Shown here: piece after piece, positions 3,740 through 64,000 of the stretch
How positions within the stretch are numbered: the first letter of the stretch is position 1
Layout: each line of letters opens with the position of its first letter
Assembly (NCBI GenBank): GCA_041550235.1
Contig: JBFEPE010000001.1
Coordinates: 8,003 to 72,002 of the forward strand
Reading direction: 5' to 3'
From: Minisyncoccia bacterium
GTDB taxonomy: Bacteria > Patescibacteriota > Minisyncoccia > UBA6257 > JAAZHW01
Length of the DNA: 64,000 nucleotides
Notes under the pieces: generated by a model
Database searches by the model: none
Seen by the model: the letters and a program-made list of their open reading frames with translations, nothing else
Told to the model about the DNA's origin: nothing
Translations under genes and position numbers: made by a program

Positions 3740-3880
3740 GGCAGATATAATTCCCCTCTAATAGAGGGGTGGCTCGCCACGAAAGAAATTGCTTTGCAAT
3801 TTCAACGTGGCTGAGACGGGGTGTTTTTCTTATTCTTTAGACCCCCGCCTTCGCGGGGGTGACAAGAGGGGGTATTTCGT
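3740..3880. repeat. Cluster of GC-rich hairpin repeats (dispersed family; reverse-complement copy near 21680-21735)
   Basis: ccctctaatagagggg, gtggctcgccacg..cgtggctgagacggggtg and acccccgccttcgcgggggt. The segment 3765-3825 is the near reverse complement of 21683-21737. Confidence 0.7.
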
Positions 3881-11849: not shown

Positions 11850-12140
11850 ATTGAGTAGCGGGGGAATTATTGTCAAATTTTTGATTGTGAATATAATTGA
11901 TGATATAGGAATGATGAGAGGGAGAGGCGACCCGCCTTCGTCCGCCTATGGCAGACTTCGGCGGGCGAGGGAAAACACCCCGCCTTCGCCAAGGCTTCGG
12001 CGGGCAATGCCCGTCTCGCCAAGAGGCGAGCCACCCCTCTATTAGTAGAGGGCAGAATGTTCGCCTAAAGAGGGCAGAATGTCCGCCTATGGCGGGGAAT
12101 AATATAATAATTATTTTAATCCTCTCCCCGCCGTAGGCGG
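11850..12140. repeat. Intergenic array of GC-rich hairpin repeats
   Basis: cgcctatggcagacttcggcggg, ccctctattagtagaggg, ccgcctatggcgggg and ctccccgccgtaggcggggagagg. The internal ORFs 11851..12045 and 11948..12136 are artefacts of the GC-rich repeats. Confidence 0.7.
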
Positions 12141-14096: not shown

Positions 14097-14576
14097 ATGA
14101 GTAAGAAACAAATCTATATATTTATCTTTGCAATAGCAATAGTCGTATTAGCGATGATATTTTTAGTTCCTTCTGGAAATGATGATTGGGTTTGTCAAGA
14201 TGGCGAAGTGCCATCAGGGGGAGCATGTATTATAGATGAAAATAATAATATGAAAGAATTGAAAATAGAGATAATAAGTGAAGGCGATGGCGATGCCATC
14301 TCTTCAGGTCAAACTGCGGTCGTTCATTATGAGGGGCGATTGGAAAATGGACAAAAATTTGATTCCAGTTTAGATAGGGGAGTTCCTTTTGAGTTCCTCC
14401 TCGGTTCAGGATTTGTTATTGCTGGTTGGGATCAAGGAGTTGTTGGAATGAAGATTGGAGAAAAGAGAAAGTTGACTATCCCATCTCATTTAGGATATGG
14501 AGAAAATGAGATTCCCGGAATGATTCCCGCAAACTCAACCCTTATTTTTGAAGTAGAATTGTTGGATATAAAATAG
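14097..14576 (+). CDS. FKBP-type peptidyl-prolyl cis-trans isomerase with N-terminal membrane anchor
   Basis: [17 protein letters not shown]...[30 protein letters not shown] is a canonical FKBP domain. Confidence 0.8.
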
Positions 14577-14764: not shown

Positions 14765-15345
14765 GAAGACAAGATGGATATTGGCAGGCGAGCGAGGAGC
14801 TTAAAAATTTGATATAAGGGTATAAAATTGTATTTTTAATTTTCTAAATTGTTATGCGGAATAATTTAGAAAAAAGATGAGATATCGATTCCAAGCATCA
14901 CTTTTGTTATTTTTTAGAGGGGCGATTTATTAATTCCCTCCCCCGCCGTAGGCGGGGGAGGGAATGGAGTTAGAAAATAATAAGAGTGATGTTTGGATAA
15001 TAATATTTCTCATCGGGGCAGATAATTAAGGGTGTGTGGTGGATGCCTTGACTTGTAAAGGCGAAGAAGGACGTGGCGTGGCTGCGATAAGCTTCGGGGA
15101 GTTGCTTAGCAAACTTTGATCCGGAGATTTCCGAATGGGGAAACCCATCTCGAATTTAAACTCGAGATATCCCATCTTATCTTAAAGATGGGGAGCTAAC
15201 CCGCTGAAGTGAAACATCTCAGTAAGCGGAGGAAAAGAAAAAAAGATGAATTATTTGTTCCACTTGTTTTAAATATTAGAACAAGTAGAACATCTAATTC
15301 ATTCATTCCCTAAGTAGCGGCGAGCGAAAGGGGAAGAGCCCAAAC

Positions 15346-15448
15346 CCAGCCCCAGTTTTTATCTAGTGACGAAATTTGTATTTGATTAATTTATTAAGAA
15401 AAAGATTATTTATTCAAATAAAAGTGGCTGGTTAAAAACTGGGGCTGG
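15346..15448 (+). mobile_element. 23S intervening sequence copy a (hairpin element with CCAGCCCCAGTTTT / AAAACTGGGGCTGG termini)
   Basis: About 103-nt AT-rich insert bounded by a perfect 14-nt terminal inverted repeat. About 95% identical to copy e at 17801-17901. Confidence 0.7.
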
Positions 15449-15765
15449 GGGTTGTAAGATTATAAAATCTCGTTTAATCGTGGTAGAGAAAAAATTAAGT
15501 TTATTAATAGAATTTGCTGGGAAGCAAAACCAAAGAAGGTGATAGTCCTGTATATGAAAATTTACTTATCTCTATGTTTATTTTCTTGAGTACTTCGGAA
15601 AAGGAAAAATCCGAAGGAATCTAGCTGAACTATCAGCTAAGGCTAAATACTTTACAAGATCGATAGCGAACCAGTACCGTGAGGGAAAGGTGAAAAGCAG
15701 GCCGGTGAGGCCAGTGAAATAGTACCTGAAACCACACATTTACAAGCAATCAGAGTCTGTCATAT

Positions 15766-15945
15766 CTGTTTGTTCTTTTTAAATTTAAAATCTTTTTGAT
15801 CTACTTGCAGAAGGTCTTGAGATGCATTTTAGTTAGCAGGGGGGAGGCATTTTTTGCCTGGTTAAGACCATATTTTCCCTAGACCCAAACGGGATACCCC
15901 CATTGCTTTATTTAATAGTGTCCTTTTTAAAAAAAGGACAAACAG
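15766..15945 (+). other. 23S expansion segment / IVS bounded by ctgtttgttc...ggacaaacag
   Basis: About 180-nt insert relative to consensus 23S domain I/II. Closed by a 10-bp inverted repeat. Confidence 0.5.
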
Positions 15946-16011
15946 ATGTGGCGGATAATGGTGTGCCTATTGAAGAATGAGCCAACGAGTGTATGGATAT
16001 TGCTGATTAAC

Positions 16012-16119
16012 CCAGCCCCAGTTTTATGATAGTTTTCTAAAGTGAATAAAATTTTGATTCGCTTTGGAACGAGCGACATGTGTGTTGCTGATAAAACTTA
16101 TTGGTAAAACTGGGGCTGG
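16012..16119 (+). mobile_element. 23S intervening sequence copy b (same terminal inverted repeats, different interior)
   Basis: cccagccccagtttt...aaaactggggctgggg. Confidence 0.7.
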
Positions 16120-16660
16120 GGAAGTCAAAGGGAAACCAAGTCTTAACAGGCGACAACAATTTTTTCTTTTGGTCTTATTGGCTAAAGGAAAAATTTGTAA
16201 GTAGTATTCATACGACCCGAAGCCAGAGCGAGCTTGCCATGGCCAGGGTGAACCTCATCGAAAGATGAGGGGAGGCCCGAACCGTTAGGTCGTGCAAATC
16301 CTTCGGATGAGCTGTGGTAAGAAGTGAAAAGCTAATCGAGCCTGGTAATAGCTGGTTCTCCTCGAAATAGTTTTAGGACTAGCGTCTATTTTATCCTATT
16401 GCAGGTAGAGCTACTGGTTGAGAAGAATAGGGGGCAACCTCGGCTTCTTAGTCAAACTCCGAATGGTGATAGGTTATGAATAGGCAGTTAGACTGTGGGG
16501 GCTAAGCTCCATGGTCAAAAGGGCATGAACCCAGATCGCCATCTAAGGTCCCTAAATCTAGACTAAGTGTTGCAAAAGGTAGTGATCGACCGAAGACAGG
16601 TAGGATGTTAGCTTAGAGGTAGCTATCATTTAAAGAGTGTGTAACAACCCACTGCCATAT

Positions 16661-16762
16661 CCAGCCCCACTTTTTAACTTGAAATCTAAATTTTTCATTG
16701 GTTTATAATTGCAAAAAGTTTTAAATCGTGATTTATAGATTCTAGCTAAAAAGTGGGGCTGG
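16661..16762 (+). mobile_element. 23S intervening sequence copy c (variant termini CCAGCCCCACTTTTT / AAAAAGTGGGGCTGG)
   Basis: Inserted between gagtgtgtaacaacccactg and ggtcg of the conserved helix. Confidence 0.65.
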
Positions 16763-17377
16763 ATTGGTCGGTTGCATCGAAAATGTATCGGGGCTAAGTC
16801 TAGTACCGAAGTTGCGAATTTCCTCGCTTTTTAGTGGGGGAGTGGTAGAGGAGCATTCCATATGTGATGAAGCTGGACCCGAGAGGGCTGGTGGAGTATA
16901 TGGAAGAGAGAATGTTGGCATGAGTAACCGCAAGCAAGGTGAGAAACCTTGTCGCCGAAAACCCAAGGTTTCCGTGGCAATGTCAATCAGCCACGGGTTA
17001 GGCGGCCCTAAGGCGATGGCGAAAGCCGTAGTCGATGGACAGCTGGTTAATATTCCAGCTCTTCTAAGTAAATTCGATGGAGTGACGGGGGAAATAAGGT
17101 TGAGTGTCTTATTGGTTTGGCATTACTACCCCTAAGAAATGTTTTTTTGGTAAATCCGGAAAACTGCTTTTAATAGCGAATTTCGGGGGATGCAAAATTC
17201 CGCTTCGGCGGGAAATTTGACTGAATAGCCCTCCAAGAAAAGCTTCTAAGATATATTTATTTAGAATCCGTACTCTAAACCGACACAGGTGGGTAGGTAG
17301 AGAATACCAAGGCGAACGGGTGAGTCTTCCTTAAGGAACTCGGCAAAAAAGCGACCGTAAGTTCGCGATAAGGTCTT

Positions 17378-17683
17378 CCAGCCTCAGTTTTGTGTTATAA
17401 TTTATGATATGTGGGTTGTATATATCATACAAAATGATTTTTCAGAAGAAATCTATATCGGCATAACCAAGGATTTAAAAAGAAGAATCTCAACTCATAA
17501 TTCTAATGGCAAAAAATTTACCACTAGGAAAAATGGTAAATGGATTTTGATTTATGCTGAGGCATACAAGTCAAAAAAAGATGCTATTGTAAGAGAGATG
17601 AAATTGAAAAATCATGGAAGTGCAAAGCATAATTTAATTAAACGAATTAAAAATAGTTTAATTGAACACAAAACTGAGGCTGG
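17378..17683 (+). mobile_element. 23S intervening sequence copy d, carrying a GIY-YIG endonuclease ORF (termini CCAGCCTCAGTTTT / AAAACTGAGGCTGG)
   Basis: Same terminal inverted-repeat architecture as copies a-c and e, but 306 nt long with an internal ORF. Confidence 0.7.
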
Positions 17684-17756
17684 ACGCAGCGAAAGTATCC
17701 CTGGCGACTGTTTATCAAAAACACAGGTCCCTGCTAACTCGCAAGAGGATGTATAG
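17409..17756 (+). CDS. GIY-YIG family homing endonuclease-like ORF inside 23S IVS (C-terminal ~25 aa read through into rRNA exon)
   Basis: VYIIQN...YIGITKDLKRRISTHN matches GIY-(10)-YIG with conserved R and H/N. The ORF starts 18 nt inside the IVS. Confidence 0.6.
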   Translation: MWVVYIIQNDFSEEIYIGITKDLKRRISTHNSNGKKFTTRKNGKWILIYAEAYKSKKDAIVREMKLKNHGSAKHNLIKRIKNSLIEHKTEAGRSESIPGDCLSKTQVPANSQEDV

Positions 17757-17800
17757 GGGCTGATGCCTGACCGATGCGGGAAGGTTAAATCTGGCGGTCC

Positions 17801-17901
17801 CCAGCCCCAGTTTTTATCTAGTGACGAAAATTTGAATTTAATTAATTTATTAAAAAAGATTATTTATTCAAATAAAAGTGGCTGGTTAAAAACTGGGGCT
17901 G
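17801..17901 (+). mobile_element. 23S intervening sequence copy e (near-identical to copy a)
   Basis: ccagccccagtttttatctagtgacgaaaatttgaattta...aaaactggggctgg. Confidence 0.7.
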
Positions 17902-18379
17902 GGGGCTAACTGGATGAAGCCCCCGTCAATGTCGGCCGTAACTATAACGGTCCAAAGGTAGCGAAATTCCTTGTCGGGTAAATTCCGACGTGCATGAACG
18001 GCTTAACGACTGGGGAACTGTCTCAAGGAAGAGCCCGGTGAAAATGCAATTTCAGCGAAGATGCTGAGTACCCGCAGCAAGACGAAAAGACCCCGGGAGC
18101 TTTACTGTAGCTTGGTATTGGGCTTGAGAATGTAATGCGTAGCATAGGTGGGAGACTTTGAAGTTTCAATTTCGGTTGAGATGGAGTCGCCAGTGAAATA
18201 CCACTCTTTATATTTTTAAGTTCTAACCTTGATGGAAAAAACATTAGGGGACAGTGCCTGGTGGGCAGTTTTTCTGGGGCGGAATCCTCCCAAAGAGTAA
18301 CGGAGGAGTTTATTAAGGTCAGCTAGGTGCGGATGGAAATCGCACTGATAGTGTAAAGGCAAAAGCTGGCTTAACTGCG

Positions 18380-18480
18380 AGGCCTACAAGCCGAGCTCTA
18401 TTTCGTGTTTCGCATAAGAACTTTCAAGAAAATAATAATTCTACCCCCGCCCATACGGGCGGGGGTAGAATAGGCAAATT
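18380..18480 (+). repeat. 23S expansion containing a GC-hairpin repeat (ctacccccgcccatacgggcgggggtag)
   Basis: About 100-nt insert relative to consensus. It carries the same hairpin family seen in intergenic regions. Confidence 0.5.
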
Positions 18481-18596
18481 TAACTCTGGAATTTCTTGTG
18501 CGGAGCATGAGATAGACTTTCTAGATAATTATATTTAGATCGAGATACGAAAGTAGAACTTAGTGACCCGATGGTTCTCTGTAGAAAGGCCATCGA

Positions 18597-18628
<32 letters not shown>

Positions 18629-18766
18629 TTAGTTGCGCCCAAGAGTCCATATCGACGGCGCAGTTCGACACCTCGATGTCGGCTCATCTTATCCTGGAGG
18701 CGGAGAAGCTTCCAAGGGTTTGGCTGTTCGCCAATTAAAAAGATACGCGAGCTGGGTTCAGACCGT

Positions 18767-19122
18767 TGAGTAGTCAAGATAATTTTTGGTTTTTAGGGTG
18801 GATAGTGTGTTTCTTTCTCTTAAATTAATTAAAATTATTATTAAATTGACTTTTCAGCAGTCTGAATCCGAGGAATAAGACATCAATTTACGGCGGCATT
18901 TCGTAGTAATACGGAATGAAAAACCGACTCATATCGGTGGAATCCCAATGGGACAATACCGAGGGAAGTTGTGTATGTTAATATCATGGTGGTCATTTCG
19001 TCAAATAAAAGATAATGTTAAATGACATGCATTAACCCCGTAGAGACTATATGTCGGTCTCCTCTTTTGACAAAGAGGACGAAGATATAGTCCAATGCAC
19101 TTAGTAATAAGTGGGAAACATG
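18767..19122 (+). mobile_element. Group I intron in 23S rRNA (ORF-less, ~356 nt)
   Basis: Exon junction gaccgt|cgtaagacaggttgg reconstitutes conserved GAACGUCGUGAGACAGUUCGG. Intron follows a U and ends in G. R-like gtagagacta (19040-19049) and S-like aagatatagtcc (19082-19093). Confidence 0.6.
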
Positions 19123-19263
19123 CGTAAGACAGGTTGGTCTCTATCTGCTGTGGGCGTTGATACTTGAGGGAATTTGACCCTAGTACGAGAGGACCGGGTT
19201 GAACGAACCTCTGGTCTATCAGCTTTCCTACCAGGGGAATTGCTGAGTAGCTAAGTTCGGTTG

Positions 19264-19296
<33 letters not shown>

Positions 19297-19480
19297 CATC
19301 CCAAGATTAGGTATCCATTTCAATTTATTGGAAGTCATCCCCTCAGAGACGATGAGGTTGATAGGCTTTAGGTGTAAGGTCAGTAATGATTTTAGCCAAG
19401 AAGTACTAATCGGATGAGTTCTGCCTCGATGAGAGATATTATTTATTATTAATATCAATTTTTACCCTTATATTTTTAAG

Positions 19481-21682: not shown

Positions 21683-21840
21683 CACCCCCGTCTCAGCCAC
21701 GTTGAAATTGCGAAGCAATTTTTTACGTGGCGAGGCGAAACCCGCCTTCGTTAAAACTTCGGCGAGGCGAAACCCGCCTTCGTTAAAACTTCGGCGAGGC
21801 GAAACCCGCCTTCGTTAAAACTTCGGCGAGGCGAAGAAAA
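21683..21840 (+). repeat. GC-hairpin repeat followed by 3 tandem copies of a 32-bp unit (gaaacccgccttcgttaaaacttcggcgaggc) ending at the aspS start codon
   Basis: Direct reading. The last unit ends ...cttcggcgaggcgaagaaaaatATG. Confidence 0.8.
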
Positions 21841-21842
21841 AT

Positions 21843-23147
21843 ATGAGGATATATATTAAAGATATAAAAAATAAAATAGGGGAGGAAATTAAAATAAAAG
21901 GCTTTGTTCAAACAATAAGAGACCAAAGTAAAATAAAATTTTTGATAATAAGAGATATTTCTGGAATCATTCAGGCAGTATTATTATCAGAAAACTCGGA
22001 GGCATTTAAGGCGACAGATGGATTAACCAATGAATCAGTGGTAGAGATTATTGGCAAGGCAAAAGAGGAAAAACAGGCACCCGAAGGAGTAGAAATAGAG
22101 ATAAGGGAAATTAAGATATTATCATTAGCCGACCCAAACTTGCCAATTCCGGTTGTAGAAAAAACAGGTGGAGAAGTAGATGTAAATAAAAGATTTGATT
22201 GGCGATGGATTGATTTAAGAAAGAATGATAAATTGATGATGATGAAGATATGGACTGAGATGGAAAGATTTTTTAGAAAATTTTGGGAAGAAAATAAATA
22301 TTTGGAAATACACTCACCAAAATTAATGGGCTCACCAAGTGAAAGCGGGGCAAATGTTTTTGAAGTAAAATATTTTGATAGAAAAGCATATTTGGCTCAG
22401 TCACCACAATTTTATAAGCAAATGGCGATGGCTTCTGGATTGGAAAAAGTTTTTGAGGTTGGTCCAGTATTTAGGGCAGAGCCATCATTTACCACAAGGC
22501 ACTCAACCGAATTTGTCGGTTATGATGCTGAAATTTCATATATTGAATCTCATCAAGATGTTATCGGCGAGATAGAGAGAATGATTAATTTTGTGTTAAG
22601 TGGAATTAAGGATAAATTTGAGGGAGAGATAAGGGATGTATTTGGGCAGGAAGTTGTTGTTCCTCAAATTCCATTTCCTCAATTAACAATGGCCGAGGCG
22701 AAAAAAATATTATCTAATTTAGGTGTTCCAAGCCAAGACAATGATTTGAGTCCCGAAGAAGAAAGGGCAATATGCGATTATATTAAAGAAAAAGAGGGGC
22801 ATGAATTTGTTTTCATCACAGAATATCCCATTGATATTCGTCCATTTTATCATATGAGAAAAGAAGATAACCCCAATATTACAAAAAGTTCAGATTTGCT
22901 TTGGAAAGGTGTTGAGATTATCACCCTTGCCCAAAGAGAGCATAGATATGATGTTTTAGTAAATCAAGCGAAAGAAAAGGGATTAGGCAATTCAGTTGAT
23001 TTTTATACTAATTTTTTTAAGTATGGCTGTCCTCCTCATGGTGGCTTTGGATTGGGTGCTTCAAGATTTTTAATGAAGATGTTGGACTTGCCAAGTATTA
23101 GAGAGGCGACATATCTTTTCCGCGGAGTAAATCGGCTGGAACCATAA
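21843..23147 (+). CDS. aspS: Aspartyl-tRNA synthetase, archaeal/eukaryal-type (class IIb, 434 aa)
   Basis: N-terminal OB fold. Motif 2 FRAEPSFTTRHSTEF. Motif 3 GGFGLGASRFLM. Confidence 0.85.
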   Translation: MRIYIKDIKNKIGEEIKIKGFVQTIRDQSKIKFLIIRDISGIIQAVLLSENSEAFKATDGLTNESVVEIIGKAKEEKQAPEGVEIEIREIKILSLADPNLPIPVVEKTGGEVDVNKRFDWRWIDLRKNDKLMMMKIWTEMERFFRKFWEENKYLEIHSPKLMGSPSESGANVFEVKYFDRKAYLAQSPQFYKQMAMASGLEKVFEVGPVFRAEPSFTTRHSTEFVGYDAEISYIESHQDVIGEIERMINFVLSGIKDKFEGEIRDVFGQEVVVPQIPFPQLTMAEAKKILSNLGVPSQDNDLSPEEERAICDYIKEKEGHEFVFITEYPIDIRPFYHMRKEDNPNITKSSDLLWKGVEIITLAQREHRYDVLVNQAKEKGLGNSVDFYTNFFKYGCPPHGGFGLGASRFLMKMLDLPSIREATYLFRGVNRLEP

Positions 23148-27112: not shown

Positions 27113-27425
27113 GCCAATGTAGCTCCCGCCGAAGGCGGGCGAAGCAGTTGGTGGAGGTTGGAACATTACGAAGTTGTGTTTCAACCCGTGGTAAGGAGTA
27201 CATTTATTTATATTTTGCCAATGTAGCTCCCGCCGAAGGTGGGCGAAGCAGTTGGTGGAGGTTGGAACATTACGAAGTTGTGTTTCAGCCCATGGTAAGG
27301 AGTATATTTATTTTTATTTTGCCAATGTAGCTCCCTCCGTCGCCAAGGCTATGGAGGGGCATGCAGTTGGTGGAGGTTGGAACATTACGAAGTTGTGTTT
27401 CAACCCATGGTAAGGATTAGATATA
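27113..27425 (+). repeat. Three tandem ~104-bp repeats, each a scrambled tRNA-Thr-like fragment with an embedded GC hairpin
   Basis: Each unit starts gccaatgtagctc (the tRNA-Thr 5' end), carries cccgccgaaggcgggcga and ends c(c/a)tggtaagga(g/t)ta (anticodon loop + 3' stem). Units start at about 27113, 27217 and 27321. Confidence 0.75.
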
Positions 27426-27650: not shown

Positions 27651-27723
27651 GCCGTTGTAGCTCAGTTGGTAGAGCAACGCCGTGGTAAGGCGTAGGTCAG
27701 CGGTTCAAGTCCGCTCAACGGCT
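27651..27723 (+). tRNA. tRNA-Thr (anticodon GGT), island-borne copy
   Basis: gccgttg/caacggc acceptor. D-arm gctc-agttggta-gagc. Anticodon arm acgcc-gtGGTaa-ggcgt. T-arm agcgg-ttcaagt-ccgct. Discriminator T. Confidence 0.85.
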
Positions 27724-27748
27724 CCTTAAAAAGCATTACAGATTAGTA

Positions 27749-28660
27749 ATGTTTTTTATTATTATGGATATACAAATTTTAGTTCGTAAGTTTTGTGATT
27801 ATTCAACTTTTATTAAAGGATATACTCCGCAAACAATTAAGAGATATAGGCAGACAATTCGTTCCTATATCAAATTCGCTAATATCACTGAAATAGAGGA
27901 AGTGAATTTAGAGAATGTTCGTAATCTTTTTTATTCTGGCCGAACCCAAAGGAATTGGTCAACCAATACCTATATCTGCTACCATAAATCTTTAATTGTT
28001 TTCTTTCGTTGGTGTGTAAGTGAAGGCCACCTTCAATCCAATCCAGCCGAAGAGATTGAAGTGCCGAAACTGGAAAAGAAAATTCCGCCTAAATTAACCA
28101 AGCAAGAAACGATGAGGATATTGGAAGTAGTAGAAAATTATCCTTATATCAATGATTTTTTAAGGCAAAGAAATTATGCTATCTTTGCCACAATCATAAT
28201 GGCAGGATTGAGAAAAAATGAGATTATCAATTTAAGGTGTGTTGATATAGATATTGAAAATCTCTCTATTTTTATTCGGCAGGGGAAAGGAAGTAAGGAT
28301 CGGATTGTGCCAATCAATTACAAATTAGCTGAAATTTTAAGCAAATACGAAAAAGAAAGAAAAAGATTGAAAAAAACTTGCCCCGAATACTTTGTTTCTC
28401 TCTATAAAAATATGGGGATTAGGCATAATGGCTTAAAGTTATTGGTAGAACAAATATCAAAAGCATCGGCGATTAAATTCACTCTTCACAAATTAAGGCA
28501 TACCTTTGCCACAATGATGTTGGAGGGAGGATGTGATATTTATTCTCTCTCTAAAATGATGGGCCATAATGATATAAAAACAACCACAATTTATTTGGCC
28601 GCCAGCATAGAGCATTTAAGAGAACAGATGATTAAACACCCAATGGGAGATGTTTTGTAG
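27749..28660 (+). CDS. Tyrosine site-specific recombinase/integrase (XerC/D-like)
   Basis: C-terminal catalytic box HKLRHTFATMMLEGGCDIYSLSKMMGHNDIKTTTIYL (R..H-R..Y). 303 aa. Adjacent to the tRNA. Confidence 0.9.
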   Translation: MFFIIMDIQILVRKFCDYSTFIKGYTPQTIKRYRQTIRSYIKFANITEIEEVNLENVRNLFYSGRTQRNWSTNTYICYHKSLIVFFRWCVSEGHLQSNPAEEIEVPKLEKKIPPKLTKQETMRILEVVENYPYINDFLRQRNYAIFATIIMAGLRKNEIINLRCVDIDIENLSIFIRQGKGSKDRIVPINYKLAEILSKYEKERKRLKKTCPEYFVSLYKNMGIRHNGLKLLVEQISKASAIKFTLHKLRHTFATMMLEGGCDIYSLSKMMGHNDIKTTTIYLAASIEHLREQMIKHPMGDVL

Positions 28661-29400: not shown

Positions 29401-29592
29401 AAATCAATAATTTAATATGCCTAACCCCTATGATTATTCATAGGGTATGGCGATAAATCCATCCCTGTATTGAGCTCCTCGTTCAGCTTATCAGGGATGG
29501 TCATATTCGGAAACGGATATGGATGATCGCAAGATCGTCAGGTTGGCGGGGAGCTTTGTGTTCCAAGTCAACCACTAAAACCATCCCTAAAT
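29401..29592 (+). ncRNA. Candidate structured cis-regulatory RNA in the 5' leader of the 29593 membrane-protein gene
   Basis: Locally GC-richer. Hairpins ccctatga-ttat-tcataggg; ccatccctg...cagggatgg; tattcg-GAAA-cggata; gatc-GCAA-gatc; ggttg...caacc. A second ccatccc copy abuts the start codon. Confidence 0.4.
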
Positions 29593-48371: not shown

Positions 48372-48677
48372 ATGAATTATTATAATTTAGAAAACAGAAA
48401 AATATTGGGTGGCATTCTTGTTGTTATCTCATTAGTAATCTTTTTCTCAATTATTGGTGGAAATAATAATATAGCATCCAATCAAATTAAAAATGACAAT
48501 CAATTTAGAAGTGAATTAAAAAATTGTTTAGAAAAGGTAGATGAAATATACAATACAGCAAAATTAATGAGATCGTCAATTTATGAGCAATACAATTTTT
48601 CTAAGAAAGAGAAGGATGAATATGTAAGGATAATGGAAGAATCAAGGCAAAAAGATGTGGGGCAATGTTATGAATAA
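48372..48677 (+). CDS. Small membrane-anchored hypothetical protein (101 aa)
   Basis: N-terminal TM ILGGILVVISLVIFFSIIGG. Confidence 0.4.
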   Translation: MNYYNLENRKILGGILVVISLVIFFSIIGGNNNIASNQIKNDNQFRSELKNCLEKVDEIYNTAKLMRSSIYEQYNFSKKEKDEYVRIMEESRQKDVGQCYE

Positions 48678-56318: not shown

Positions 56319-56358
56319 TACCCGCCTTCGTCAAGACTTCGGCGGGCGAAGAAAAAAT

Positions 56359-56709
56359 ATGAGGGAGATAAAGATTGATGCAGAAAATAAAATAATTGGG
56401 AGATTGGCAACAAGGATTGCTGTTCTTTTGTGTGGCAAGGATTTGCCATCATACAACCCAAGATTAGAAGGAGATACGAAGGTTATTATTGAAAATATAA
56501 AGAAGGCAAAATTTTCTGGAAATAAATTTGAAAAAAAATTATATAGAAGACATACTGGATACATTGGTCATTTAAAAGAATTCACGGCTAAACAAGTTTT
56601 TGAAAAAGATCCAAGAGTATTATTGCAAAAAGCAGTAATGGGGATGTTGCCTAAAAATAAGTTGAGGGCGAGGAGAATAAAAAATTTAGTTTTTTTGAAG
56701 TCAAATTAA
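56359..56709 (+). CDS. rplM: 50S ribosomal protein L13 (listed ORF begins 56281; ATG at 56359)
   Basis: MREIKIDAENKIIGRLATRIAVLL. Preceded by hairpin ...cttcggcgggcgaagaaaaaatATG. Confidence 0.9.
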   Translation: MREIKIDAENKIIGRLATRIAVLLCGKDLPSYNPRLEGDTKVIIENIKKAKFSGNKFEKKLYRRHTGYIGHLKEFTAKQVFEKDPRVLLQKAVMGMLPKNKLRARRIKNLVFLKSN

Positions 56710-56783
56710 GAAACCCGCCTTCGTCAACCCACCTTCGCTAAAGCTACGGCAGGGCAGGGGACTTCGGCGGGCGAAGAAAAAAT

Positions 56784-57251
56784 ATGGAAAAAAAATCTAC
56801 ATCTACAAAAAAAACTGATACTACAAAAAAAGTTGTTAAAAAAAGTGGGTCAGTGGCAAAAAAAGAAAAATACTATGAGGCGGTAGGAAGAAGGAAAACT
56901 TCTACGGCGAGGGTTCGTTTATTTACAAAAAAGAAGGGATTTACAATAAATGATAAGGAGTATAAGGAATATTTTCCAATTCTTAGGCTTCAGAAAAAAG
57001 TCAATATTCCTTTTGATAAGATGAATATTGAGGATAAGTTTGGTGTCTCTGTTAAGGTTGTCGGGGGAGGAATTAATTCCCAATCCGATGCTATTAAGTT
57101 GGGAATTAGTAGGGCATTAGTAAAATTTAACCAGGATTTTAAGAAAAGACTTCGACGGGTTGGGCTTCTCACTCGTGATGCAAGGGAGGTGGAGAGAAAG
57201 AAGCCAGGGCTTCGCAAGGCCCGAACTGCCCATCAATGGAGTAAGAGGTAG
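56784..57251 (+). CDS. rpsI: 30S ribosomal protein S9 with Lys-rich N-terminal extension
   Basis: C-terminal GLLTRDAREVERKKPGLRKARTAHQWSKR. Confidence 0.9.
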   Translation: MEKKSTSTKKTDTTKKVVKKSGSVAKKEKYYEAVGRRKTSTARVRLFTKKKGFTINDKEYKEYFPILRLQKKVNIPFDKMNIEDKFGVSVKVVGGGINSQSDAIKLGISRALVKFNQDFKKRLRRVGLLTRDAREVERKKPGLRKARTAHQWSKR

Positions 57252-58598: not shown

Positions 58599-58859
58599 GA
58601 TATCTATTGACAAAAAATAAAATATGATTATAATGAGGGGACTTTTTGATTTTTTGACAAAATAATTAATTTGTCCCCTTATTAGGGCTGATAATCGCCC
58701 CAATTATCTTGTGATTTTAAATAAAAATAAGATAAATTAATAAAAGATTAATTTTAGAACCCATTGCTTTTTGCGGGTTGTTTTTGTTCTCATTTTTTAT
58801 TTTATTGCTTGAGGCTGTGGATAAGTGAAATAGAAGGTAAGAACAAGTATAACTGCGAT

Positions 58860-59060
58860 TAGGAATAGGCGAGCATGATGCTTCCTGTCACCCCTGCGAA
58901 GGCAAGGGTCTAAATAAATGGCAAGTGAGTGGTAATAGTGAGGTTGAGATTCCCGCCTTCGCGGGAATGACAAAGAAGAAATAGGAATGACAAAGGAGAG
59001 AGGATGACGCCCCCTCCTGTCGCCTCCGCGAAGGCGGAGGTCTAAAGAAAAGAAAGTAAG
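58860..59060. repeat. GC-hairpin repeat array
   Basis: cacccctgcgaaggcaagggtc, cccgccttcgcgggaatgacaa and cgcctccgcgaaggcggaggtc. Confidence 0.7.
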
Positions 59061-59193
59061 GACTGAATTAAAAATTGAATATAATCTATTTTAGGATTTG
59101 ATTGAGGTAAGGTGGAATAATAAAAAACGGAGGTGGCAATTATCAATTTATTAATTGCCATTTATCCTCCAAGGTTGCCTGTTGTTGATATCA

Positions 59194-59490
59194 CTAATTT
59201 TTAATTTTAAATTCGATTAATAATCCTTTTAGACTATCCTCATCAATTTTAGCAAATCTTAACTCGTCAGATTCAAGGTATTTCAAATGCAAACGAAGAT
59301 TCAAAACATTAGTTGAGCAAGAATCAGTTTTAAAGCTCACAAGAGATAATCCCTCACAAGATTTTCCATAAACAAGAAATGGCACCCATCCATTTATGAA
59401 TTTGCGACTATGATTAATTGCAATAACTATATCACCATCTTCTAAATTCTCTAGTTTCTTAAAATATTTGTCTTCTACTTCTATTGTCAT
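59194..59490 (-). CDS. Hypothetical protein (98 aa) inserted between rpsI and rpoB
   Basis: Preceded on the minus strand by TTGACA-N15-TATAAT and SD aggagg. No family recognised. Confidence 0.45.
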   Translation of the reverse strand: MTIEVEDKYFKKLENLEDGDIVIAINHSRKFINGWVPFLVYGKSCEGLSLVSFKTDSCSTNVLNLRLHLKYLESDELRFAKIDEDSLKGLLIEFKIKN

Positions 59491-59536
59491 GCCTACCTCC
59501 TGAAATCAGATTATAATAGAGAAATTGTTTTGTCAA
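59491..59536 (-). promoter_or_regulatory. Promoter/RBS cassette (TTGACA-N15-TATAAT-ctgatttcaggaggt-ATG), copy 1
   Basis: Reverse complement of 59491-59536. Near-identical copy at 63677-63722. Confidence 0.55.
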
Positions 59537-59539
59537 TGG

Positions 59540-59823
59540 GGAGATTCCCGCCTTCGCGGGAATGACAAAGAAGAATGGAATAAAAATAAATCAAATAATC
59601 CCTCCCCCCGCCTTCGGCGGGGGGAGGGGATAAGGAAGAAACAGGAACGACACCTCTCCCGTGTCACCCCCGCGAAGGCGGGGGTCTAAAAACCAAGGGA
59701 AACACGATGAGAATTGTTGAGATGCCTGCCTCCGCAGGCATGACAATAAAATATTTAAATAATACCCGCCTTCGTTAAAATAGAATATCCGCCTCTGGCG
59801 GACTATGGCGGGCGAAGAAAAAT
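59540..59823. repeat. GC-hairpin repeat array ending at the rpoB start
   Basis: cccgccttcgcgggaatgacaa, ccccccgccttcggcggggggagggg, cacccccgcgaaggcgggggtc, gcctgcctccgcaggcatgac and ...ctatggcgggcgaagaaaaatATG. Confidence 0.75.
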
Positions 59824-62800
59824 ATGGCTAAAAAAATAAAAGTTTTCTCAAGTGAGCCGGATGTGTTGGAGGGATTAAAGAATTTGCCTAATCTTTGCGA
59901 AATCCAATTAAACTCATATAACTGGCTCATAAAAAAAGGGTTTAAGGATTTATTTAAGGAAGTTTTTCCAATAAGTGATTATACCGGCAATGAATTAGAA
60001 ATAGATTTTGATGGTTATTTCTTAGACCAGCCAAAATTTGACGAGATCTCATCAAAAGAAAAACGACTCACTTATGAAGCACCCTTGAGAGTCAATTTCA
60101 AATTAACAGACAAGAAAAGCAAAAGAGAAACAAAGCAAGAAGTATATTTTGGAGACTTTCCTGTCATGACAGACAGGGGAACTTTTATTATAAACGGAGT
60201 AGAACGAGTTGTAATTTCTCAAATTGTTCGCTCCAGTGGATTATATTTCACAGCCGAGATGTTAAAAGGAAGGAAGCATTTTGGTGCAAAAATAATTCCT
60301 GATAGAGGAGCATGGTTGGAATTTTCAACTGGCTTGGATAGAGCAATTTATGTTAAGATTGACAAAAAAAGAAAAATCGCCGTTTCGGCATTATTGAGAA
60401 TATTTGGATTAGATTCAGATGAGAAAATATTAGAGGCATTTAAGGGGACGGATATTGGGGAAGTAAGTTTTATAGAAAAGACGATTAAAAAAGATGCATC
60501 AAAAAATGAAGAAGAGGCATTTATGGAAATTTATAGAAGAATTAGGCCAGGTGATTTAGCCACACCAGAGAGTGCAAAAAGTTTAGTTGAGGCAATGTTT
60601 AAGAGAGATGACAGATATGATTTGAGTGATGTTGGAAGATATAAATTAAATCAAAGATTGGGGATGGGCGATAAAAATAATAGTAGGCAATTGACAATAG
60701 AAGACTTAATTGAAGTTGTTAAAATAATAATAGAATCAAATAATGATAGAACAAAAGAGCCAGACGATATTGATCATTTAGGAAATCGTCGTGTGAGGGC
60801 AGTTGGAGAAGTTTTGCTTTCGCGGATAAGGGTTGGGCTTATGAGATTAAGAAGGGTAGTTCAGGATAGAATGTCTACTTATGATAGGGAAACATTGATG
60901 CCAACTCAATTAATAAATATCAGAACTGTTATGGCGGTCGTTGATGAGTTTTTCAATACCTCTCAATTATCGCAATTTATGAATCAAGAAAATCCATTGT
61001 CCGAGTTAGAGCATAAAAGGAGAATGTCTGCAACAGGTCCGGGTGGATTAAATAGAAAGAGGGCTGGGTTTGAAGTGAGAGATGTTCATCGCACTCACTA
61101 TGGAAGGATTTGTCCAATTCAAACACCAGAAGGAGCAAATGTGGGATTAGTGAGTCATTTGTCTTGTTTTAGCCGTCTCAATGATTTTGGATTTATAGAA
61201 ACACCTTATTTTAAAGTTGAAAATGGAGTAATAACAAAAAAATTAGAATATTTAAATGCTTGGGAGGAGGAAAATTATTATATCGCATCAGCGGGATTTA
61301 AAAAAGATAAAAATAATAAAATAACGGGAAAAGAAGTTGGGGGAAGATATAAGGGAATTCCAGGCTTCTACCCAACTTCAAAAATTCAATTCTCAGATGT
61401 TTCACCATTTCAAATATTTAGTATTGCTACTGGACTTGTTCCATTTGTTGATCACAATGATGCCAACCGTGCTTTGATGGGATCAAATATGCAAAGGCAA
61501 GCTGTCTCTTATGTTTTGTCTCAAGCCCCATTAGTTGGAACGGGTATGGAGGAAAAGGCAGCTGTTGATTCAGGGCAGACATTGGTAAGTAAAGATGCGG
61601 GCGAAGTAACAGAAGTAGATGCTAACCATGTAAAAATAAAAAATAAAAATGGCAAATTAAAATTATATAATCTCCATAATTTTAAGAGAACAAACCAAGA
61701 TACTTGTTTATCTCAAAGGCCAATTGTTAAGGTTGGGCAGAAAGTTAAAGAGGGGCAGGTTTTGGCTGATAGTTTGATGACTGATAATGGAGCATTGGCA
61801 TTAGGACAAAATCTTTTGGTGGCCTTCTTGTCATGGGGTGGTTCTAACTATGAGGATGCTATTGTTTTGTCTGAGAGAGTAGTTCAAGAGGATAGATTTA
61901 CATCAATGCATATTGAGGATTTTTATTGTGATGTGAGGGATACAAAACTTGGTCCGGAATTAACAACATTAGATATTCCAAATGTATCCCTTGAAAGATT
62001 AAAGAATTTGGATGAGGAGGGGATTGTGAGAGTAGGAGCAGAAGTTGGCTCTGGTGACATTTTAGTTGGAAAAATTTCTCCAAAAGGAGAGACTGATTTA
62101 ACGGCTGAGGAGAGATTATTGAGGGCAATATTCGGAGAAAAGGCAAGAGATGTTAAGGATACATCTCTCACTATGAAGCACGGAAAGAGGGGAAGAATAG
62201 TTGGGATAAGAATATTTTCTCGAGAAAATGGAGATAAATTAGAGCCGGGCATAATCAAAAGAATTCAAATTCAAGTTGCTCAAATGAGAAGAGTTTTGGC
62301 TGGGGATAAGTTGGCTGGAAGGCATGGAAACAAAGGAATTATTTCAAAAATTGTCCCAGTAGAGGATATGCCATATATGGAAGACGGGACTCCGGTGGAT
62401 ATTATTCTTAATCCACTGGGTGTTATTTCAAGAATGAATTTAGGGCAGATATTAGAAACTCATTTGGGATTAGCTGCTTCAAAGTTGGGTTATCGTGCAG
62501 TTACCCCTGTTTTTGCTGGTGCGACTGAGGATGAGATACGAAAAGAATTGAAAACGGCTGGTTTTCCAGAAGATGGAAAGGTGGTCCTTTATGATGGGCA
62601 AACAGGAAGGGCATTTGATCAAAGAGTTGTTGTTGGTTATCAATATATGTTGAAGTTGAATCATATGGTTGAGACAAAAATTCATATGAGGTCTATTGGT
62701 CCATATTCTCTAATTACACAGCAACCATTAGGCGGAAAGGCTCAATTAGGAGGACAGAGATTTGGAGAGATGGAAGTATGGGCATTGCAAGGATATGGAG

Positions 62801-63202: not shown

Positions 63203-63676
63203 TTAATTTAAAAAATTAAAAGATATTTCGATCTCGGATACCTCTGATAATTCCAATTTGGTGAGACCACTAAAGAAATTGATTAAGGCCAAAGATGGTC
63301 TTTCACATTCATGTCCCAATTTGATTTGTCTTTTCCAAAACCTTCTCTTCTCTAATACCTCTTCAATATGATAGATGTTGTGATAGACCTTATGCTCAGT
63401 TCTTTCAATGACCTTGAGAACTCTTTTCAGATGACCGCCTTCGGGAAATGTGATAATTAACCCCTTATGCATTTTTTCTTTATTAACCATTTGCCTGTAC
63501 TTAATCATTTTTTCGTAGTCGCATAAATATTGAACGATGCAATAAATTGGAATTTCATTATAAGATGAAACAAGGTCGGCTGTTTTTGCCTCAACTAGTT
63601 CATAAAACACGGCACCATTTTCATCAGGCTCCATCTTCCTTAGTTCAAGATTAAGAAATTCTTCTTTTTTACCCAT
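63203..63676 (-). CDS. Hypothetical protein (157 aa) inserted between rpoB and rpoC
   Basis: Same promoter/RBS cassette as 59194..59490. No family recognised. Confidence 0.45.
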   Translation of the reverse strand: MGKKEEFLNLELRKMEPDENGAVFYELVEAKTADLVSSYNEIPIYCIVQYLCDYEKMIKYRQMVNKEKMHKGLIITFPEGGHLKRVLKVIERTEHKVYHNIYHIEEVLEKRRFWKRQIKLGHECERPSLALINFFSGLTKLELSEVSEIEISFNFLN

Positions 63677-63722
63677 TGAAACCTCCTGAAATTAGATTAT
63701 AATAAATAAATTATTTTGTCAA
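63677..63722 (-). promoter_or_regulatory. Promoter/RBS cassette, copy 2 (TTGACA-N15-TATAAT-ctaatttcaggaggt-ATG)
   Basis: Reverse complement of 63677-63722. Confidence 0.55.
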
Positions 63723-63729
63723 TAATATA

Positions 63730-64000
<271 letters not shown>

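Follow-up and report, generated by a model that had tools for sequence, protein, structure and literature searches.

Rickettsia palindromic elements (RPE) are palindromic repeats of a reduced, AT-rich genome whose in-frame insertion in essential genes is tolerated, and RPE-1 is longer than 100 bp. The ompA 5′ stem-loop, the leader stabilisers of B. subtilis and ribosome standby sites are, by comparison, gene-specific and conserved. REP/BIME elements are GC-rich imperfect palindromes of 20–40 bp that occur in many copies, lie in transcribed intergenic spacers, form mosaic clusters, have some copies in frame inside genes and are suspected of a role as RNA hairpins; one end of a REP bears an unpaired tag (GTAG or CGTC), and REPs lie close to the 3′ end of the ORF before them and at a variable distance from the ORF that follows (Di Nocera et al. 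2013, PMC3733652). The GC clusters of yeast mitochondria are GC-rich palindromes scattered through a very AT-rich genome, are rapidly gained and lost between close strains, merge and nest into composite elements, and show an AG target-site duplication (Wu & Hao 2015, PMC4478555).

Here we describe a ~32-nt hairpin unit from a 64-kb stretch of DNA (the window, meaning the whole stretch that was analysed), which has a GC content of 32.8% and whose best-named protein relatives are from Patescibacteria/Parcubacteria. The units make up a new sequence family within a known type of element, with one unexplained positional bias. It resembles RPE in being a palindromic repeat of a reduced, AT-rich genome that tolerates in-frame insertion into essential protein genes, but the units are shorter and their in-frame copies come from other metagenomic genomes rather than from this window. 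As in 5′ stabilisers and standby sites, a stable stem-loop is predicted to stand just 5′ of an unstructured ribosome-loading region; unlike them, the unit is repeated in many copies whose presence changes from strain to strain. With REP/BIME the units share all the traits listed above up to and including the suspected RNA-hairpin role: they are hairpin-forming palindromes in dispersed and clustered copies, with further copies in the related contigs L121 and L221. In contrast to REPs, they begin (A)CCCGCC and end GCRAAG with no terminal tag, CGTC occurring only in the loop of the rplM subtype, and these unit sequences do not support placing them in the tagged REP super-families; no RAYT (Y1) transposase appears among the Pfam matches of the window ORFs (64 kb of genome). 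Moreover, the units stand a fixed 9–10 nt from the downstream ATG in sense orientation only, a spacing that is unusual because REPs were reported at variable distance from downstream ORFs (PMC3733652). The yeast mitochondrial clusters offer the same setting of GC-rich palindromes in AT-rich DNA, the same rapid gain and loss, and the same merging and nesting, but they are organellar while the units are bacterial, and we found no clear target-site duplication at the units, only a TTCG direct repeat that flanks the unit loop.

The sequence-only reading of the window had proposed that a shared hairpin and A-rich element is fused to the start codons of five housekeeping genes (aspS, rplM, rpsI, rpoB, and rpoC), and all five sites match its description. 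Each of these starts reads ...GGCGRG(G)CRAAG-A5-6-T-ATG and has a hairpin unit, CCCGCCTTCG...GGCGGG, upstream. A rigid first pattern recovered one site and was replaced by the gapped pattern GGCGRG-N0-1-CRAAGAAAAA-N1-2-ATG, which gave five exact matches in the window, all on the + strand and each ending on a start codon (Table 1), and no match in 100 dinucleotide-preserving shuffles. Pfam identified the products as AspRS, L13, S9, and RpoB, while RpoC is represented by a 43-aa N-terminal fragment that falls under the Pfam cut-off. Ortholog N-termini in four related contigs back the start codons of three genes (MREI for rplM, MIS/MII for rpoC, and M[AF]KK for rpoB); an N-terminal extension of rplM through the hairpin unit was ruled out, since the orthologs begin MREI. 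The tandem 32-bp units before aspS were recovered by TRF (Table 1), and the reported absence of a canonical Shine-Dalgarno (SD) sequence was likewise borne out, with GGAGG or AGGAG before 0 of the 5 genes. As to the accompanying statement that many island and hypothetical genes do have an SD, a strong SD (GGAGG or AGGAG) lies upstream of only 9 of the 53 predicted genes, mostly small hypothetical ones, and the mention of the island was overstated because only one of the nine lies within it.

Table 1. Positions of the start-site motif, the hairpin units and other features of the window (contig L121 where indicated).
Feature	Positions	Strand	Details
aspS motif match	21825-21845	+	start codon 21843
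rplM motif match	56341-56361	+	start codon 56359
rpsI motif match	56766-56786	+	start codon 56784
rpoB motif match	59807-59826	+	start codon 59824
rpoC motif match	63853-63873	+	start codon 63871
alaS cluster	11930-12009	+	two units of the same family; ATG 12185, ~180 nt downstream, not flush
aspS array	21729-21836	+	3.3 identical 32-bp units (ACCCGCCTTCGTTAAAACTTCGGCGAGGCGAA); TRF period 32, 100% identity
aspS native start context	21837-21845	+	AAAAAT + ATG; homology to L221 from window 21834, about -9 of ATG
rplM unit	56320-56351	+	single unit ACCCGCCTTCGTCAAGACTTCGGCGGGCGAAG between rplQ stop codon and rplM; then A6-T-ATG
rpsI composite unit	56713-56776	+	rplM-rpsI spacer; second unit 56728-56759 nested in loop
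rpoB unit	59764-59817	+	22-nt hairpin insert TAGAATATCCGCCTCTGGCGGA in loop, 59781-59802; then A5-T-ATG
rpoC 5′ region, three units	63731-63772, 63792-63832, 63833-63864	+	first two with nested TCCGCCTATGGCGRA hairpin
TTGAAA-16-TATAAT	63676-63703		promoter-like; upstream of rpoC units
TTGACA-16-TATAAT	58607-58634	+	perfect; then ~200-nt leader (58600-58797 matches L121 7945-8143)
Segment 5′ of rpoB	58798-59801		~1 kb, missing from L121
gagaTTCCCGCCTTCGCGGGAAtgacaaagaag repeats	58946-58978, 59541-59573		flank 98-aa ORF cassette
42-nt promoter-plus-SD leader	59495-59536; 63681-63722; L121 11839-11859	-	before ORFs of 98, 157 and 64 aa
Second, longer repeat family	3763-3835; 21683-21740	-; +	opposite orientations
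23S rRNA gene	15016-19428		4413 nt; ORFs 16764-17135 and 17409-17756 inside
104-bp tandem repeat	27113-27416		2.8 copies, 90% identity
tRNA-Thr	27651-27725		
Genomic island	27749-50615		tyrosine integrases at 27749 and 44418
LOOT RNA match	29418-29539	+	86.6 bits; gathering score 46.4

The unit has the consensus (A)CCCGCC-TTC-GNN-AA-NNC-TTC-GGCG(R)G-(G)CRAAG and forms an imperfect palindrome in which CCCGCC pairs with GGCGGG as a 6-bp GC outer stem and GNN with NNC as a 3-bp inner stem, while two opposing TTC triplets form a pyrimidine mismatch. The loop can house a second hairpin, namely TCCGCCTATGGCGGA in rpoC units 1 and 2, the 22-nt insert in the rpoB unit, and a complete further unit in the case of rpsI. 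The window contains 12 units, grouped in 6 clusters; every unit lies on the + strand, 5′ of a + strand gene, and each of the six clusters precedes a translation or transcription gene; the rplM and rpsI units fill the intercistronic spacer. Over the first 15 nt and the final 27 nt (through the ATG, six A's included) the outer rpsI unit is the same as the rplM copy, the last rpoC unit differs from the aspS unit at 1 nt in 41, and the last unit of the aspS array terminates GCGAAG. Loop subtype tracks A-tract length, with TCAAGA accompanying A6 and TTAAAA accompanying A5. Several GC-rich hairpin families fill the intergenic DNA of this genome, and the unit is one of them. Separately, a second, longer repeat family (CACCCCGTCTCAGCCACGTTGAAATTGC.AAGCAATTT...CGTGGCGAG) occurs at two places and adjoins the aspS array. 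Other identities were considered for the units and rejected: a CRISPR array, as there are no spacers; intrinsic terminators, as an A-run rather than a U-run follows the hairpins and a terminator scan calls no + strand unit; and an assembly artefact, as units recur in independent MAG contigs.

Single units gave weak fold z-scores (-0.7 to -2.0) because the shuffles retain the GC-rich composition, and covariation told more. In a metagenome scan, CTTCGGCGRGSRAAGAAAAA was found on 95 contigs, which reduce to 73 distinct contexts, 32 of which have a recognisable 5′ arm although the pattern did not demand one. Covariation is seen at the two free inner-stem pairs in a set of 33 distinct units (CG 20/UA 12/UG 1 and UA 18/CG 13/UG 1), and 95% of cells in the pair count are paired. 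No shuffle equalled the structure in percent paired, in changes on both sides or in covariation score, and the structure also exceeded every slid control. A genome-collection scan for the bare unit listed mostly chance matches in GC-rich genomes, so that only low-GC matches were kept and no enrichment estimate was drawn; among those listed, the low-GC matches are mostly from named Patescibacteria. Many metagenomic copies lie in frame and sense, with the usual reading P-A-F/S-A/V-K/E-A/T-S-A-G-K/E-E-K, and their hosts include Mur_ligase_C (at the same position in three species), an Obg domain, Sua5/YrdC, SMC, the L7/L12 hinge, the RpoB C-terminal tail, and the C-terminal region of IF-2 (over a sub-threshold EF-Tu D2 match). 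In-frame copies, always sense, were seen on the low-GC metagenomic contigs L138, L206, L210, L217, L220, L163, L187, L186, L128, L205, and L195, and in the three Mur ligase orthologs the unit DNA is far better conserved than the flanking codons. A start codon directly follows 1 of 32 metagenomic units versus 4 of 4 window matches of the same 20-mer; the sole metagenomic case is the rpsC start of L195, and the unit there codes for the C-terminal tail of L22. This small GC-rich palindrome family appears to be widespread in Patescibacteria and able to sit in frame in essential genes.

Three public contigs (L121, L122, and L221) are 95–96% identical to the window in nucleotide sequence across the flanking genes, and the comparison with them covers rplM, rpsI, rpoB, aspS, ybaB, and aspS-murC. 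L121 stops before rpoC, and a search for the rpoC 5′ region of a sister genome with the 43-aa RpoC fragment gave only short unrelated fragments. In L121, whose S9 is 98% identical, the rplM-rpsI spacer measures 6 nt and contains no unit (gacaaatATG), and L122 is likewise without one. The rplM unit recurs in L121 with ~36 nt of additional repeat (GAAGTAAAAAATATG), and the rpoB gene of L121 has a plain unit that lacks the nested insert (ACCCGCCTTCGTTAAAACTATGGCGGGCGAAGAAAAATATG). In L221, with 97% AspRS identity, ...cttaaacaaaaatATG stands before aspS, a unit is lacking, and the genes farther upstream differ from those of the window; the aspS-murC interval holds a 340-nt hairpin cluster versus 4 nt in the window; and the ybaB 5′ region holds a sense-oriented composite unit, on the opposite DNA strand, where the window has none. 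The rpsI, aspS, ybaB, and aspS-murC sites are thus presence/absence polymorphisms between genomes with 95–96% identical flanks. The flanks at the rpsI and aspS sites themselves are rearranged, and the rpoB loop insert shows no target-site duplication. No transposase was found in the 64-kb window, and no target-site duplication or clean pair of empty and filled sites in the comparison with relatives, so it is from the polymorphism only that we infer mobility. As a separate observation, the ~1 kb missing from L121 upstream of rpoB holds several perfect UUCG/GAAG-loop hairpins and the cassette of a 98-aa ORF, the latter flanked by gagaTTCCCGCCTTCGCGGGAAtgacaaagaag repeats (Table 1).

More distant relatives have no units. 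Three contigs with the order rpoA-rplQ-rplM-rpsI-rpoB-rpoC (L123, L124, and L125; S9 70–74% identical) contain none anywhere, nor is there one on an aspS contig with 72% AspRS identity. The leaders of the same genes in these relatives are A/T-rich and mostly SD-less (aataaaaaatATG, acaaaaatATG), with the exception of L124 rpoB, which has AGGAG at about -17. The rplM-rpsI spacer is 2–6 nt long without a unit in 5 of 5 relatives (L121, L122, L123, L124, and L125). Since the distant relatives lack units yet have A/T-rich, SD-less starts, the hairpin is, as far as these relatives reach, a recent, lineage-specific addition, and the SD-less start is ancestral and independent of the hairpin.

The A-rich half of the element is found widely in the window, where AAAAAT stands directly before the start codon in 12 of 53 predicted genes, five with a unit and seven without (dus, trmD, ybaB, yidC, rnpA, and the genes at 48372 and 57306). 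Inside arrays the 3′ boundary of the unit is GCGAA or GCAAAG with the next unit immediately after, and we therefore assign GAAG to the repeat and AAAAA(A)TATG to the gene. The AAAAATATG context is native to the genes and not brought by the units, and aspS of L221 has ...aacaaaaatATG without a unit, although the rpsI copy seems to have brought part of its A-tract along. The unit-less A/T-rich starts of relatives and the seven unit-less window genes together indicate that the ‘motif’ consists of the 3′ arm and tail of the repeat joined to a native start context. A TATAAT-like box also lies within 25 nt of the start in 17 of 53 genes (e.g., those at 14097, 47351, 9601, and 57306), a hint that many mRNAs of this genome are leaderless or have very short leaders.

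Five of the six clusters in the window, and both of the two in L121, end 9–10 nt before an ATG. Of the 127 intergenic AAAAAT sites, only 11 adjoin a start, giving a binomial probability of ~3e-5 for chance placement beside an A-tract, so random persistence does not explain the five clusters. The preference for a fixed sense-strand position 5′ of SD-less starts is statistically real and unexplained.

The sequence-only reading had seen in the shared element either a common regulatory mechanism that takes the place of the SD, such as a standby site or an autoregulatory operator, or a portable promoter/5′-UTR cassette. A shared regulatory or SD-replacing role does not agree with the distribution of the unit, which is missing before rpsI (L121 and L122) and aspS (L221) with 95–96% identical flanks, from the 70–74% S9 and 72% AspRS relatives whose same genes are mostly SD-less, and from the seven SD-less AAAAAT-ATG genes of the window and all distant orthologs. 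The conservation in sister genomes that the reading had proposed as a check failed accordingly, the unit being absent before rpsI and aspS and rearranged before rplM and rpoB. That the hairpin is an operator for a ribosomal protein or RNA polymerase subunit, bringing about autoregulation by mimicry of an rRNA site, is extremely improbable: four of the five genes do encode ribosomal or RNAP subunits, but the unit also precedes aspS and alaS, is absent from L123–L125 and, before rpsI, from L121, and lies in frame within unrelated genes of other genomes. Nor is there a match to an Rfam r-protein leader; no Rfam family matches the units even at E<=5, and the permissive mode returned sub-threshold noise with nothing near a gathering score. 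We also judge it very improbable that the units carry a promoter, with each insertion supplying a transcription start to the downstream gene. A promoter scan found none inside the GC-rich units, which lack a -35/-10 pair, and the rplM and rpsI copies have no promoter-like match; against this, a weak TTTAAA-16-TAAAAT match takes the rpoB unit loop as its -10 element and a TATAAT lies between rpoC units 1 and 2, but better promoters are situated 5′ of the arrays (Table 1). What survives of the cassette proposal is the portability of the hairpins, which are a polymorphic repeat; the promoter does not, and the start context is native. The promoter-like sequence upstream of rpoC would put the rpoC units in the 5′ UTR, and the aspS and rpoB units are probably in 5′ UTRs as well. 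The perfect promoter match farther 5′ of rpoB is followed by a ~200-nt leader conserved in L121, and the two may be the rpoB promoter and leader.

A different proposal is that hairpin and A-tract form a selected portable module that aids highly expressed SD-less genes, either as a 5′ stabiliser against exonucleases after processing or as a standby or insulating hairpin that holds the A-rich loading site single-stranded. Several observations fit: the distance from the unit 3′ end to the ATG is fixed, the units are always sense and, in the window, precede core genes only, the rplM and rpoB copies are kept in both strains, and the polymorphic ybaB copy of L221 is again sense-oriented on the opposite DNA strand. 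Nor is the predicted accessibility of the start sites lowered (0.65 for the five genes versus 0.51 ± 0.14 for 42 other genes), so the start regions are at least as accessible as those of other genes. Nevertheless, presence at aspS and rpsI varies between genomes that are 95–96% identical, all more distant relatives lack the unit, expressing these genes from simple A-rich leaders, and elsewhere the unit lies within ORFs or beside terminator-like hairpins. On balance we think a selected module unlikely, and from these sequence patterns a functional role in mRNA stability or initiation has a similarly small chance of being real.

The explanation that we favor, and hold to be likely, is that the shared sequence is the edge of a GC-rich palindromic repeat abutting an ordinary SD-less, A-rich context, and that it is not needed for translation. 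One part would come from the unit CCCGCC-TTC-GNN-AA-NNC-TTC-GGCGGG-CRAAG, namely its 3′ arm together with the tail (CTTCGGCGRG-(G)CRAAG); the other would be the SD-less AAAAA(A)T-ATG context common to many genes of the lineage with or without the repeat. The unit family would have expanded recently in this species-level lineage, and would change through presence and absence, tandem amplification, and nesting of hairpin within hairpin loop. The unit RNA is predicted to form a self-contained hairpin that leaves ~15 nt before the AUG unpaired, in which case initiation would not be blocked and the unit would be tolerated there. Spread from site to site would most likely proceed through AAA(AA)TATG microhomology, or else through an insertion preference beside the A-tract. 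The identity of the rpsI and rplM copies and the match between loop subtype and A-tract length point to block copying via the shared start context; a preference for insertion beside the tract may instead account for them, as may selection that favors a hairpin immediately beyond the ribosome footprint. A bolder reading, which we consider quite improbable, is that, in this Patescibacteria lineage poor in SDs, the mobile GC hairpin has become a start-site-seeking module that arrives sense, by insertion or by microhomology copying, exactly 9–10 nt 5′ of A-tract starts, and is kept before highly expressed genes as an mRNA stabiliser or insulator; if true, such a hairpin would be a portable, SD-independent expression enhancer.

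The window contains several further features (Table 1). A near-identical 42-nt promoter-plus-SD leader (TTGACAAAA.AATTT.T.TATTATAATCT.ATTTCAGGAGGT) precedes three unrelated small ORFs on the opposite strand, beside rpoB and rpoC, in the window and in L121. None of the three ORFs has a Pfam match, and from its sequence the leader looks like a real portable expression cassette. The 23S rRNA gene exceeds the 2925-nt Rfam model to an extent that implies ~1.5 kb of insertions. The genomic island carries, besides its two tyrosine integrases, an N6 DNA methylase with an HsdR-N domain, a KAP NTPase, a UvrD-like helicase, GmrSD with Schlafen/AlbA_2, and a PIN protein; the LOOT RNA match lies in this integrase-bounded island beside tRNA-Thr. 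Just 5′ of tRNA-Thr is the 104-bp tandem repeat, each copy of which has a GC hairpin, AGCTCCCGCCGAAGGCGGGCGAAGC.

Our searches found no relevant literature on CPR/Patescibacteria hairpin repeats or on the sequence itself, which is not proof of novelty; a palindrome family of Patescibacteria with no description in the searched literature is worth keeping in view. The case is also a caution that, in repeat-rich, AT-rich genomes, a start-codon motif can be a repeat edge plus a generic start context. Finally, the fixed sense-strand placement of these units near SD-less starts could reveal how such repeats spread or are co-opted.
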